Positions 33,581 to 36,474 of a stretch of 57,845 bases of DNA are shown piece by piece (within the stretch, counting starts at the first letter, position 1; the number at the start of each line of letters is the position of its first letter). Source of the DNA: an uncultured Mycoplasmatota bacterium. Its GTDB lineage: Bacteria; Bacillota_I; Bacilli_A; RF39; UBA660. The notes under the pieces were generated by a model. The model saw nothing but the letters and a program-made list of their open reading frames with translations. It had not been told where the DNA came from and did not search any database. The stretch is taken from the NCBI GenBank assembly GCA_947426265.1, contig CANEDJ010000003.1, positions 1-57,845 on the forward strand, given 5' to 3'. Both the position numbers and the translations under genes were made by a program.

Positions 33581-34366
33581 ATGATGAACAGATTAAACGA
33601 AATCTTGCATGAATTAGGAATATCAAAAGTAAAATTAGCTAAATTCTTAGGAGTTTCCAGACAAATGATTTATAATTACTTGGAACTAGATGATATCAAT
33701 AAATGGCCAAAAGATAAAAAAGTACTATTATTGAATTTGCTTGGAATTAAGTCTCCAGAAGAATTAGAGAATATAAAAGTAGACACAGACTATATTATGG
33801 ATGTAGAAGCTAGAATCAACAACTTATTTGAAAGCACTCAAAAAAATATTGCAAATGAAACAAATTCTATTTATAATGGATTAAATAAAAGACAAAAAGA
33901 AGTTATGGTAAATATTGTCGATTTGATGAAAGAACGTTTGGAAGATGATAAAGATGATGAGGCATATTATACTTTTAAATATTTGTATCATTTTTTACAG
34001 TCTTTGGATACTTCAAAAGAATTAAAGTATGTTTTAGCATATGTTGCAAAGGCAACTGGATTTGTAAAACCTCTGGAGTTTGTATTTGAAGAAAACGAAC
34101 AATTTATTTTTGAAAGTATTTTGTTTTCTGCTTTTACATTGTATAATGGGGGAGGTGCTTCCAAAACTAAAATAGCAGAGACTCATAGACGTTTTGTAGC
34201 TCAAATTGAACACAAAAATGAAGAAAGGATGAGCCGCACTTTAGAATTGAATACAATTAAAGTTCAGGCTTTAAAAGAACTTGGATATACTGAGATTAAC
34301 GAAAGAAATGCAGCAGAAATATTTGAAAAAATTGCTGAAATTCAATCAAGAAAAGTTGGACAATAA
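33581..34366 (+). CDS. XRE-family HTH protein with a ~195-aa uncharacterised helical C-terminal domain
   Basis: LNEILHELGISKVKLAKFLGVSRQMIYNYLE HTH; GGAGGG SD. Confidence 0.7.
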   Translation: MMNRLNEILHELGISKVKLAKFLGVSRQMIYNYLELDDINKWPKDKKVLLLNLLGIKSPEELENIKVDTDYIMDVEARINNLFESTQKNIANETNSIYNGLNKRQKEVMVNIVDLMKERLEDDKDDEAYYTFKYLYHFLQSLDTSKELKYVLAYVAKATGFVKPLEFVFEENEQFIFESILFSAFTLYNGGGASKTKIAETHRRFVAQIEHKNEERMSRTLELNTIKVQALKELGYTEINERNAAEIFEKIAEIQSRKVGQ

Positions 34367-34394: not shown

Positions 34395-34438
34395 CACTTC
34401 CCCTACTTTATTTTTTGAATTTTAATAGTAGAGTAGTG
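34395..34438. repeat. second inverted pair of the 13-nt motif
   Basis: CACTTCCCCTACT (34395-34407) and AGTAGAGTAGTG (34427-34438). 34392-34417 is a near-copy (21 of 25 identical, one indel) of 33489-33513. Confidence 0.55.
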
Positions 34439-34724
34439 TTATTTTTAACGCAAAAAACTATTAGTAGATGATGGATTATAAAGATAAAGTACTTAAAATG
34501 AAGTTATATAGAATAATAATTTCAGTATAATTATAGATATTTCTTTTCAATATAATAATGTATTAAAGCAAATGAAAAGAATTTATCTTTTGAAGGATAA
34601 TTATATTATTGATTTTTTAATGTTATAATATACAAAGCTAATTATGGTTATTATTTGTGCTATTTTTAATCCACTAACAACTTTCTATAATGTATATTAT
34701 GTTAACTTCTTTTGATAAAGAAAA

Positions 34725-35423
34725 TTATTTCTTTTGAAGCTTATTTATAATCATTGCTATAATATTACTCCAACTATCTTCATATTTATTTTTTTTAATG
34801 TTATATAAATGATTTTTAGCAATAATAGCTAGTTTATATTCTTCTTTTTTTGCACGTTTCTTTTTAGATAAAATATCATATAAAAAATCAATTATGTATT
34901 TACACGCTAAAAAAGTGATTAAAATTATGACAATACTAAAATATAAAGCGCTTTCATCTATATTATTAGCATTATTTTCGGACATGGATGGAATAGCAAA
35001 TAAATAAGAACAAATTAAGGGAAAAATTATTGAAGAAAAAAAGCTATTTTCTCCAGTTTTATTGTTTATACAAATTAGCTCTAAAAATTCCTCTATGTCA
35101 TGGTTATAGCTTTTTTTATATTTTTTTAAACAGTGAAAAAAGATTTGCTCGTCTGCTTTAAACTTATTCTTTTGGTTTTTATTTATATAGTAATACCAAA
35201 TGGATTCCCCTGCTTTTAACCATATCGCTACCCCAATAAATAGAGACATTATTTTAGCATAAACATCACCTATATTGAATTTGTTCCAATCTAAAATAAT
35301 ATGTATTGTCATTCCTAGAATCATTATGATGATTGAAATGATAACAATATTGATTGGATTATCATATTTATCCATTATAACTGTTTTCTTTTTATATTCT
35401 TCCCACCAATCTTCATGTATCAT
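34725..35423 (-). CDS. hypothetical 4-TM membrane protein (232 aa), distal gene of a 2-gene operon
   Basis: AGGTGA SD 5 nt before ATG 35423, overlapping the upstream gene's stop; extremely AT-rich, Lys/Ile/Asn-rich. Confidence 0.6.
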   Translation of the reverse strand: MIHEDWWEEYKKKTVIMDKYDNPINIVIISIIIMILGMTIHIILDWNKFNIGDVYAKIMSLFIGVAIWLKAGESIWYYYINKNQKNKFKADEQIFFHCLKKYKKSYNHDIEEFLELICINNKTGENSFFSSIIFPLICSYLFAIPSMSENNANNIDESALYFSIVIILITFLACKYIIDFLYDILSKKKRAKKEEYKLAIIAKNHLYNIKKNKYEDSWSNIIAMIINKLQKK

Positions 35424-35428
35424 TTTTA

Positions 35429-35935
35429 TCACCTACTCTCTTTTATTTGAATTTTGTCAATTTTATTATGTATAATAATGTTTATAAAAATTGAAAATGC
35501 AACAATTATAAGTGGCGTTAGCCATTGAAGCATAGATTTATCGAGAATGCCAAAAAGAATTGCTAGCACACTTGTGAAAAATGTAAGCACATTGATTGGG
35601 GTAATAAGATAAATGTTTTTATAGTTGTCAATTAGCCTAGATAAAAATTCTACAGTTTCATAATTTATAGTAATTGTTTCCCTTTCTAATTTAGCTAAAT
35701 TTTTACTTTTTAGAAATTCTTTGATTTCAATTAAGACTTTATCATCAATATTACAGTCTTTTATGATTTCAGAATCACTAAATTCTTTTTTTAAATTTTT
35801 ATAATATTCATTTACAAAATAGTTAAAAGTCTTATAAAAGCTTATTTTGTTTTTATTTATAGTCTTATTTATCTTTTTACTTTTTTTCTTATCTTTCAAA
35901 TATGATTTTAAATGTTTCTTTTCTAGTTCAAGCAT
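35429..35935 (-). CDS. hypothetical protein (168 aa): Lys-rich helical N-terminal domain plus 2 C-terminal TM helices
   Basis: AGAGGTGA SD 5 nt before ATG 35935 (the track's GTG 35944 lies inside the SD). Confidence 0.6.
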   Translation of the reverse strand: MLELEKKHLKSYLKDKKKSKKINKTINKNKISFYKTFNYFVNEYYKNLKKEFSDSEIIKDCNIDDKVLIEIKEFLKSKNLAKLERETITINYETVEFLSRLIDNYKNIYLITPINVLTFFTSVLAILFGILDKSMLQWLTPLIIVAFSIFINIIIHNKIDKIQIKESR

Positions 35936-35957
35936 AAAACTCACCTCTTAATTTTTT

Positions 35958-35966
35958 ATTATAGCA
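35958..35966 (-). promoter_or_regulatory. extended -10 element (TGCTATAAT) for the 2-gene membrane operon
   Basis: TGnTATAAT ~22 nt upstream of ATG 35935; no good -35. Confidence 0.4.
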
Positions 35967-35998
35967 CAAATATAACAAAAACGAACATAATTTCATCA

Positions 35999-36033
35999 TA
36001 AAAAAAATCAGAAACTTATTGAAAGCTTCTGAT
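35999..36033 (-). terminator. intrinsic terminator of the 20-codon mini-gene
   Basis: 11-bp stem (one mismatch) ATCAGAAGCTT-TCAAT-AAGTTTCTGAT followed by T8 on the minus strand; the mini-gene's stop codon sits in the loop. Confidence 0.7.
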
Positions 36034-36078
36034 ATTATTCCTCATATAATGAATGAGTAATATTAATAATAAAATCAT
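36016..36078 (-). CDS. unlisted 20-codon hydrophobic ORF MILLLILLIHYMRNNIRSFQ
   Basis: Own promoter, AAAGGGGA SD 4-5 nt before ATG, own terminator; too short to be listed in the ORF track. Confidence 0.45.
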   Translation of the reverse strand: MILLLILLIHYMRNNIRSFQ

Positions 36079-36106
36079 AAAATCCCCTTTTTTCTTTCGA
36101 GAGGAT

Positions 36107-36134
36107 ATTATAACAGAAATTTAAAAAAATGCAA
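36107..36134 (-). promoter_or_regulatory. sigma-A type promoter of the mini-gene
   Basis: TTGCAT-16 nt-TATAAT with extended TG (TGTTATAAT) on the minus strand. Confidence 0.55.
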
Positions 36135-36161
36135 ATTGATTAAAATCGTTCCAAATTCTAC

Positions 36162-36173
36162 CACTTCCCTACT
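36162..36173 (-). repeat. fifth copy of the 13-nt motif
   Basis: CACTTCCCTACT (plus strand) = AGTAGGGAAGTG on the minus strand; lies between two divergent promoters. Confidence 0.5.
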
Positions 36174-36177
36174 CTTT

Positions 36178-36207
36178 GCATAATTCACTCATAAGCAATC
36201 CATAATA
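36178..36207 (+). promoter_or_regulatory. forespore sigma-G-like promoter
   Basis: GCATA-18 nt-CATAATA matches GnATR-17/18-CATnnTA. Caveat: this leaves only a ~10-nt leader before ATG 36225. Confidence 0.35.
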
Positions 36208-36224
36208 CTAATGGGTGATGAAAT

Positions 36225-36434
36225 ATGGCAAAGAAAAATATGAAACAGTCTAATAAAGCATCTGTAAAGAACTGTAAGAATAATAATGTTAGTAATGCTA
36301 ACAATAATGCAGTAACTGATGCTAATAGTAATAAAGTTTCAAACAAAGCCAATAATGAAATTGGTTTTGATGACGCTGAAGACCATTCGTTTGAACTAGA
36401 TGAAGATAATGGCGATTCTTTTAGACTAATATAG
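36225..36434 (+). CDS. small Asn/Lys/Asp-rich protein (69 aa); possible minor spore protein
   Basis: GGGTGA SD 6 nt before ATG, strong terminator directly downstream; basic N-terminal half, acidic C-terminus. Confidence 0.55.
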   Translation: MAKKNMKQSNKASVKNCKNNNVSNANNNAVTDANSNKVSNKANNEIGFDDAEDHSFELDEDNGDSFRLI

Positions 36435-36446
36435 GTAGTCATACCT

Positions 36447-36474
36447 AAGAAAGAGTTTTCTCTTTCTTTTTTTT
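36447..36474 (+). terminator. intrinsic terminator
   Basis: 9-bp stem AAGAAAGAG-TTTT-CTCTTTCTT followed by T8. Confidence 0.8.

Follow-up and report, generated by a model that had tools for sequence, protein, structure and literature searches.

A candidate stand-alone small-peptide gene at the edge of a strain-variable segment beside dif in uncultured gut Bacilli

A compact expression unit next to dif

The window, that is, the whole 57,845-nucleotide (nt) stretch of contig CANEDJ010000003.1 that we analyzed, is a stretch of chromosome with a GC content of 28% from an uncultured gut bacterium of the Bacilli. On its minus strand, in a variable segment between the gene for a 69-amino-acid (aa) protein (p69) and a dif site, lies a small unit that we call the mini-gene; it encodes a predicted 20-residue peptide and is followed on the same strand by a cassette of two membrane-protein genes. 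Direct reading and scans find in the sequence all of the parts that a first-pass annotation had assigned to it, namely a promoter, a Shine-Dalgarno (SD) sequence, an open reading frame (ORF) of 20 codons and a terminator:

36107..36135, minus strand: promoter P1, with a -35 element TTTGCA (36135-36130), a 17-nt spacer and an extended -10 element TGtTATAAT (36115-36107)
36083..36090, minus strand: SD sequence AAAGGGGA, 4 nt upstream of the ATG (direct reading)
36016..36078, minus strand: mini-ORF of 20 codons plus TAA (ATG 36078-36076, TAA 36018-36016), product MILLLILLIHYMRNNIRSFQ
36000..36033, minus strand: intrinsic terminator, hairpin 36033-36007 followed by a T-run to 36000

In the promoter scan P1 scores 10 of 12, plus the TG extension; for its -35 element, TTGCAT with a 16-nt spacer is an equally valid reading. 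Leu or Ile accounts for 9 of the 20 codons, as had been stated. The terminator hairpin has 11 pairs, including one G-U pair, and a 5-nt loop, and its 5' arm is formed by the last sense codons (codons 16-19), also in agreement with the earlier description; two details of that description change. The hairpin and the run of eight T residues (T8) are present, but T8 occupies 36007-36000 (its first T doubles as the last stem base) and does not reach 35999, which is an A; the stop codon does lie inside the hairpin, but it is not confined to the loop: its first base is the final one of the loop, and its second and third begin the 3' arm. The distance of 60 nt given for the downstream operon has to be replaced: the ATG of the next gene (35935) is 80 nt past the mini-ORF stop and 64 nt past the T-run. 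Within the mini-ORF product, MILLLILLIHYMR and NNIR are the stretches of interest as mass-spectrometry targets.

Promoter-like sites by themselves are not enriched in the 1.2-kb region around the unit (8 found, 8.3 expected from shuffled sequence); for terminator-like sites the count is 2, with 0.2 expected. The full combination of SD, ATG, an ORF of 12-40 codons and a terminal hairpin with T-run occurs at one locus in the window (mean of 0.2 in 20 shuffles). Conservation across species, described below, is a stronger argument against chance than this enrichment. A 23-aa ORF just past the terminator (35928-35999) was dismissed; it has no SD and is not kept in L019, a contig that carries another allele of the region.

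Recurrence in related species

We compared the window with related loci and contigs, which are designated by L-numbers. L001-L018 are contigs of the same species; they are uninformative because their intergenic region is 100% identical to that of the window. Contigs identical to the window also occur in many gut metagenomes and in the metagenome-assembled genome (MAG) GCA_022793145.1; the species is present in the metagenome runs SRR13251504, SRR22341264 and SRR29764170. L019-L028 represent a second cassette allele within the window's species. L031 and L120 belong to one further species and L030 to another; both differ from the window at the GTDB species level, and their ZupT proteins are 64-66% identical to that of the window. 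The GTDB species nearest to the window consist of MAGs labeled uncultured Bacilli or "Tenericutes".

The mini-gene recurs at the same place in L030 and in L031/L120, complete with promoter, SD, frame and a hairpin that engulfs the stop codon; in total, it is found in three related species of uncultured gut Bacilli. Its variants are as follows:

L031/L120: promoter TTTGCA-17-TGcTATAAT, SD AAGGGGAG, peptide MILLLILLINYMKNNVRS, hairpin UAAGAAGUUA/UAACUUCUUA
L030: same promoter architecture, SD AAGGGGAG, peptide MILLLILLINYMKNNNVRS, 18-pair hairpin
L019 type: mini-ORF product MILLLILLIHYMRNNIRDL with the tail ..NNIRDL* and its stop codon in the loop; hairpin AUAAGAGAU/AUCUCUUAU plus T-run

The spacing from AAGGGGAG to the ATG is 7 nt in L030 and L031. 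In L031/L120 no gene follows the mini-gene, and dif lies ~130 nt further on; comparison of L031 with L120 reveals an unchanged unit and indels of 48 and 34 nt just downstream.

At other related loci the mini-gene is absent. In L116-119 the p69 flank is followed by a weak hairpin, a -10 element and a homologue of the first cassette protein (168 aa; p168); in L121 the -35 element (AATTTGCA) alone is kept, and beyond it come a hairpin with T8 and a cassette with its promoter; in L115 a promoter remnant is followed by dif; and in L112-114 and L110 other sequence occupies the position. Genomes in which p69 is at most 58% identical have nothing comparable. As to whether the peptide or just the hairpin is conserved, a check proposed when the unit was first described, the peptide is kept in three species, and some relatives keep the hairpin or the cassette without the ORF. 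Likewise, homologous operons lack the mini-gene in L116-119 and L121, and the ORF is kept elsewhere.

Wider searches extended this distribution no further. With a four-sequence profile, nhmmer matched only L030 and L031 among 80 related loci. A scan of JGI metagenomes for the nucleotide pattern of the mini-gene (TATAAT...AAGGGGA...ATGATTTTATT) gave 15 matches, all by chance and with unrelated ORFs. Phage and plasmid collections contain no match for the 3-kb region (megablast) or the 146-nt unit (sensitive blastn). The whole window has no match in Rfam 15 at gathering thresholds, and at permissive E-values the interval 35900-36260 gives only matches far below threshold (E of at least 0.17). No paralogue or tandem copy was found in the 1.09 Mb of the window and related loci; each locus that has the mini-gene has one copy.

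Substitution pattern of the mini-ORF

The mini-genes of the window and L031 align without an indel, with 83% nucleotide identity; past the terminator, no similarity between the two is recognizable by direct reading. The mini-ORFs differ at 9 of 54 aligned nt, listed in order at codon positions 3, 1, 3, 1, 2, 3, 1, 3 and 3 (the separate tally puts 4 of the 9 at third positions, one fewer than this list). Just three residues change, all conservatively (H/N, R/K and I/V). The ratio of nonsynonymous to synonymous substitution rates (dN/dS, omega) of the mini-ORF is 0.10 against L031 and 0.145 against L030, which falls inside the range of 0.02-0.19 that we obtained for neighboring genes; for the same species pair, omega is 0.02 for p69, 0.02 for the gene of a 261-aa helix-turn-helix protein (HTH-261) and 0.19 for zupT, all at saturated dS (1.3-2.6).

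In simulations with nine random composition-weighted substitutions, the ORF stayed open with at most three residue changes in 0.13% of the trials (0.0013). The ORF frame is the only one open in both the window and L031; the other five frames have stop codons and 6-7 residue differences. The sole length difference among the orthologues is an in-frame AAT in L030. The evidence from this pattern that the peptide sequence is under purifying selection is good, not conclusive; if the residues are so constrained, the peptide, and not merely the RNA, would be the selected product.

The downstream cassette and the terminator hairpin

Whether the mini-gene serves the genes that follow it depends on how that segment is built:

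35958..35966, minus strand: cassette promoter P2, an extended -10 element TGcTATAAT with a weak -35 element (direct reading)
35429..35935, minus strand: cassette gene 1, encoding p168 (168 aa), with a Lys-rich N-terminal part and two C-terminal hydrophobic helices
34725..35432, minus strand: cassette gene 2, encoding a membrane protein of 235 aa (232 aa from the next ATG)
34680..34707, plus strand: canonical XerCD dif site, ACTTTCTATAA-TGTATA-TTATGTTAACT, which bounds on the right the variable region with the mini-gene and the cassette

P2, which lies between the terminator and the downstream gene (35966-35958), had been overlooked in the first reading of the locus. Its motif, TGnTATAAT, is kept before the cassette alleles in L019, L121 and L029; L116 has TAGTATAAT. 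In the second allele (L019-L028), the first protein is 50% identical to that of the window and the second is an unrelated protein of 259 aa. Upstream of the cassette the two alleles differ at 2 positions in ~230 nt; their similarity then breaks off exactly at mini-ORF codon 16 and is regained at the stop codon of cassette gene 2, just before dif. The strain-variable cassette thus delimited (34725-36033, minus strand) extends from codon 16 on the left to dif on the right and includes the terminator, P2 and the genes for the 168-aa and 235-aa proteins. The cassette is absent from L031, and L030 has its first gene only; all four combinations of mini-gene and cassette exist (both, either alone and neither). 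Judged from these alignments, the two membrane-protein genes are a separate, replaceable cassette with a promoter of its own.

RNAfold predicts the terminal hairpin in the four ORF-bearing variants and in L121. Hairpin and T-run are kept with differing sequence in L019, L030, L031 and L121, and the arms vary yet stay complementary: stem position 3 is C:G in the window and A:U in the other variants, and positions 7-9 are AGC:GUU in the window, GAU:AUC in L019 and AGU:ACU in L031. The overlap with the ORF is common to the four ORF-bearing variants: each has its final sense codons in the 5' arm and its stop codon inside the hairpin. The hairpins of L030 and L031 were not flagged by a simple scanner because they have fewer than three G-C pairs; for the same reason, their efficiency as terminators is less certain. 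An alternative, antiterminator fold is not predicted. A 5' stem that would sequester the SD is predicted in all three species; we gave it no weight, as it hinges on an assumed transcription start.

The behavior of the hairpin invites the explanation that the terminator alone is under selection, perhaps together with a promoter region shared with p69, and shields the cassette and dif; the SD and ORF would then be the decaying 5' stump of an older gene that was cut by cassette replacement, and the peptide would be functionless. A hairpin with a T-run does precede P2 even where the ORF is missing (10-11 pairs with T8 in L121; a weak stem of 6 pairs with T7 in L116), the recombination joint between the alleles of the window's species falls exactly where the hairpin starts, the unit has been lost repeatedly, and, by an estimate from base composition, an ATG is followed by 20 open codons with a probability of ~0.15 at 24% GC, which is not rare. 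Such a relic is difficult to reconcile with a dN/dS of 0.10-0.15 and exclusively conservative replacements while synonymous sites in the neighboring genes are saturated, with a start codon, SD and frame kept in three species and an only indel that is in frame, or with a unit that is unchanged between L031 and L120 despite the 48- and 34-nt indels just downstream. We consider it unlikely that the peptide is such a remnant.

A leader peptide or a stand-alone gene

The first of three readings offered in the first-pass annotation was a translation-sensing leader, or attenuator, for the operon. P1 transcripts would then stop at the hairpin unless a ribosome on codons 12-20 held the 5' arm as the polymerase reached the T-run; coupled translation would give read-through into the cassette and then toward dif. 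The geometry, preserved in all four variants, allows this: the earlier statement that a ribosome completing the ORF has to unwind the terminator is correct, and from ribosome and polymerase footprint sizes we estimate that the 5' arm would be unwound once the P site of a ribosome has reached about codon 12, and that a ribosome abutting a polymerase on the T-run would be positioned with about codon 16 in its P site. The idea that translation melts the terminator is physically sound, provided that transcription and translation are coupled. It is most attractive in L030, in which the SD of a p168-like gene (35% identity) is located a few bases past the T-run of the hairpin and an intervening promoter is not recognizable; read-through from P1 would be the simplest route to its expression, so a role in cis is possible there.

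Several observations argue against such a role in general. A promoter intervenes between the putative leader and its gene in the window, and L030 is the only case in which none is apparent; the cassette's extended -10 promoter is conserved in the window, L019, L121 and L116. The leader does not co-occur with its supposed target across genomes: the mini-gene is intact in L031 and L120 without a downstream gene, and cassettes occur without it in L116-119 and L121. The predicted folds include no antiterminator, and the model has no need of purifying selection on the peptide. RNA polymerase generally outruns the ribosome in low-GC Gram-positive bacteria, and the Bacillota are classed as having "runaway transcription" (PMC13323073), in which ribosomes do not trail the polymerase closely; therefore, the terminator should act before the ORF is translated, releasing a short mRNA. 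Because mini-gene and cassette occur independently and the cassette is served by a promoter of its own, it is unlikely that the mini-gene is a dedicated leader or attenuator, although this is the most probable of the alternatives.

Known attenuators provide a useful comparison. The pyrBI leader of Escherichia coli is a leader-peptide attenuator in which the leader ORF runs into the terminator. For Tn916, Su, He and Clewell 1992 put forward a leader model for orf12, which precedes tet(M) (cited in bioRxiv 10.1101/2021.03.24.436905); however, the tet(M) leader-peptide model failed a direct experimental test in E. faecium (bioRxiv 10.1101/2021.03.24.436905). The mini-gene shares with these systems a short ORF with its own SD directly before an intrinsic terminator, such that a ribosome on the last codons would block the terminator; it differs from them in having no obligatory target, a second promoter after the terminator, a peptide sequence that is itself conserved, a host group that is thought to be uncoupled, and no signal, such as uridine triphosphate or an antibiotic, that could be named. 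The leaders of vmlR, msrD and mef/mel are antibiotic-responsive attenuators of Firmicutes that are based on an upstream ORF (PMC9226507, PMC10314930, PMC4335068); they, too, have an ORF and a terminator within a 5' region of ~100 nt in low-GC Gram-positive bacteria, but there a stalled ribosome favors an antiterminator before a resistance gene, whereas neither an antiterminator nor a resistance gene accompanies the mini-gene, which at some loci is not followed by any gene.

A broader version of the same idea, which we regard as improbable and offer as speculation, is that P1, the small ORF (sORF) and the terminator together act as a resident gate on expression, one that is controlled by translation and borders a variable slot linked to dif. 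If this were true, any cassette recombined between the mini-ORF and dif would fall under a strong chromosomal promoter, and its read-through would be metered by how tightly ribosomes trail the polymerase across a leader of 18-20 codons; L030, in which the cassette gene has no promoter of its own and directly adjoins the hairpin, would show the gate undisguised. Functionally, the gate would be comparable to the Pc promoter of integrons and its short attI-associated ORF, but built at the XerCD site in a gut bacterium with a reduced genome.

The explanation that we favor, to which we assign about an even chance, is that the mini-gene is a genuine stand-alone gene, unannotated and dispensable, for a small peptide that acts in trans and is not a dedicated leader. 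It is favored because the cassette has its own promoter, mini-gene and cassette are mutually independent, and transcription in the Bacillota is classed as runaway. P1, a strong sigma-A-type promoter with an extended -10 element, would direct a monocistronic RNA of ~100 nt that carries a good SD and an ORF of 18-20 codons and ends at its own terminator, overlapping the last codons; ribosomes would translate the released RNA, unwinding the 3' hairpin as they finish. The predicted product is a small peptide with a nine-residue Leu/Ile block and a polar, basic tail, MILLLILLI-(H/N)YM(R/K)NN(I/V)R.., which most likely would be membrane associated and act in trans; the gene itself would be an accessory module in the variable segment between p69 and dif. 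The locus has what is asked of a stand-alone sORF, that is, its own promoter, SD, ORF and terminator together with a coding-type substitution pattern across species; among the classes compared here, a gene for a stand-alone small protein is the only one whose testable features are all present.

Several points weigh against this interpretation. The hydrophobic run has 9 residues (12 if HYM is counted) and is too short for a normal transmembrane helix. The tails of the two alleles within the window's species differ (..IRSFQ in the window, ..IRDL in the L019 type); either the tail is of little importance or it is dictated by the hairpin. The coding test has as its basis one deep split (the window versus the L030/L031 lineage) and ~10 substitutions, and codons 16-18 are constrained by the hairpin as well. 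The arrangement in L030 looks like a leader. Finally, at least five close lineages (L110, L112-114, L115, L116-119 and L121) have lost the unit or had it replaced; given this repeated loss, the mini-gene must be dispensable.

Small membrane-associated proteins encoded by stand-alone sORFs include SpoVM (26 aa) and KdpF (29 aa). The mini-gene resembles theirs in being monocistronic, in encoding a hydrophobic peptide without a signal sequence and in its conservation within a narrow clade; unlike them, it has no partner protein or operon context that points to a target. To our knowledge, its peptide is shorter than any well-characterized stand-alone membrane example of this kind.

Standard annotation misses genes of 18-20 codons, and evidence of selection exists for very few of them; the mini-gene, from uncultured gut Bacilli with reduced genomes, would be a clean case in which full expression signals accompany a coding-type pattern. 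In addition, it defines the constant border of the strain-variable slot next to dif and could help in studying how such slots are filled and expressed. Its practical value is limited by an occurrence in three species so far and by the repeated losses among sister lineages; it is well suited to small-protein catalogues but is not a new mechanism.

Comparison with type I toxins and signaling peptides

A special case of the stand-alone gene is a type I toxin, that is, a small membrane-damaging peptide whose translation is restrained by an RNA. The smallest known type I toxins include Ibs (18-19 aa) and the Fst/Ldr family (PMC8309996, PMC2887945), which the mini-gene resembles in size, in a hydrophobic N-terminal part with a polar C-terminus, in having its own promoter and terminator, in being unannotated and in its patchy, accessory distribution among close relatives. 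With 10 of its first 15 residues hydrophobic, the peptide narrowly satisfies the loose hydrophobicity rule that Fozo et al. 2010 (PMC2887945) applied to short candidates; their intergenic-distance criterion points the other way. If transcription starts right after the -10 element, the 5' end of the RNA can pair with the SD in all three species, which would resemble the inert primary transcripts of several type I toxins; this pairing rests on an assumed start, and the nearest purine, 9 nt past the -10 element, would leave the 5' arm untranscribed.

Unlike the known families, the mini-gene has no recognizable antisense RNA gene: on the opposite strand of the unit no promoter rises above background, and the 9/12 matches in L030 and L031 are as frequent in shuffled sequence (a weak test, as it uses the consensus only). 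It is also single-copy, its contiguous hydrophobic block of 9 residues covers about half of a membrane span, the Rfam search described above yielded no family (at 20 aa the peptide is too short for protein-family searches), and the peptide has no sequence similarity to any known family. The toxin-like reading put forward earlier is thus unsupported, and we consider it quite improbable.

The third earlier proposal was a secreted signaling propeptide sensed by the nearby XRE-like regulator, which is the HTH-261 protein:

33581-34366, plus strand: gene of HTH-261 ("XRE regulator"), 261 aa, with an N-terminal HTH and a C-terminal part of ~200 aa without a family match

The two genes lie 1.7 kb apart, and the regulator has an N-terminal HTH. 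The distribution and the polarity of the peptide disagree with it. HTH-261 is encoded by a core gene that always adjoins mnmA and is 53-90% identical in ~30 related genomes (one locus has a partial 38% match), nearly all of which do not have the mini-gene; it is set apart from the mini-gene by the cassette and dif, and exporter or processing genes are not found nearby. The peptide is hydrophobic first and polar/basic last, opposite to the short hydrophobic peptides (SHPs), which have a basic N-terminus and a hydrophobic C-terminus, and it does not have a Phr-type signal peptide; neither a co-distributed receptor nor the propeptide architecture of Rgg/SHP or RRNPP systems is found. Signaling of this kind therefore seems very improbable indeed.

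HTH-261 is much more conserved than its neighbors (up to 90% identity, with the omega of 0.02 given above) and probably has a core, possibly essential function; it is probably not the regulator of a mobile element.

The chromosomal neighborhood

The gene order XerD - DNA-alkylation-repair protein - CmpB-like protein - ZupT - p69 - variable segment - HTH-261 - MnmA is common, wholly or largely, to many related genomes. The dif core motif is single-copy in 44 related loci, and wherever its neighbors were mapped it is located between zupT/p69 and the HTH-261 gene (~6340-6367 in L031, ~6813-6840 in L030). The cumulative GC skew peaks at ~38-42 kb; together with the dif site, this identifies the locus as the replication terminus. 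Neither a pattern search nor inspection by eye found a second dif-like site at the left boundary of the cassette, as would be expected for a pdif module or for an integrative mobile element exploiting Xer (IMEX).

The remaining flanking gene is that of p69:

36225..36434, plus strand: p69, 69 aa, divergent from the mini-gene; rich in Asn, with an acidic C-terminal end (..FELDEDNGDSF..); the conserved left flank is the region upstream of this gene

Homologues of p69 form six clusters only in 5.8 billion proteins, and its omega of 0.02 indicates strong purifying selection. The 168-aa, 235-aa and 69-aa proteins have no family in Pfam, PHROGs, PADLOC or NCBIfam; an AlphaFold2 model of the 168-aa protein from a three-sequence alignment (mean predicted local distance difference test score, 47.7) was not good enough to search for similar folds. 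Positions 36447-36468, between the convergent genes zupT and p69, form a 9-pair hairpin flanked by an A-run and a T-run, which is probably a shared bidirectional terminator.

Possible traces of mobile elements were noticed in the relatives. On the other side of dif, L030 (6852-10600) encodes a 390-aa protein that resembles replication initiators, a 227-aa P-loop (GVPGSGKT) protein and small hydrophobic ORFs, an arrangement that we take to resemble an inovirus- or plectrovirus-like element integrated at dif (an IMEX); in L110 a Rep_trans gene is located beside dif. In some strains and species zupT is reduced to a 103-aa C-terminal fragment (L019 1-933, L020 1-1226 and L112 1769-3700). In L112-L114 the fragment adjoins the gene of a 532-aa serine recombinase, and in L019 and L020 the neighbors encode 205 and 302 aa; this suggests that an element was inserted into zupT.

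Finally, the motif [AG]TAGGG(G)AAGTG is found at two fixed places on the minus strand of the window, one (36162-36172) between the p69 start and the -35 element of the mini-gene and the other (34395-34406) just beyond the terminator of the HTH-261 gene. In relatives it occurs at 6041 in L030, 6047 in L031, 7348 in L033, 8098 in L038 and both 6978 and 8204 in L053; it is SD-like in appearance, or it may be the site of a regulator.

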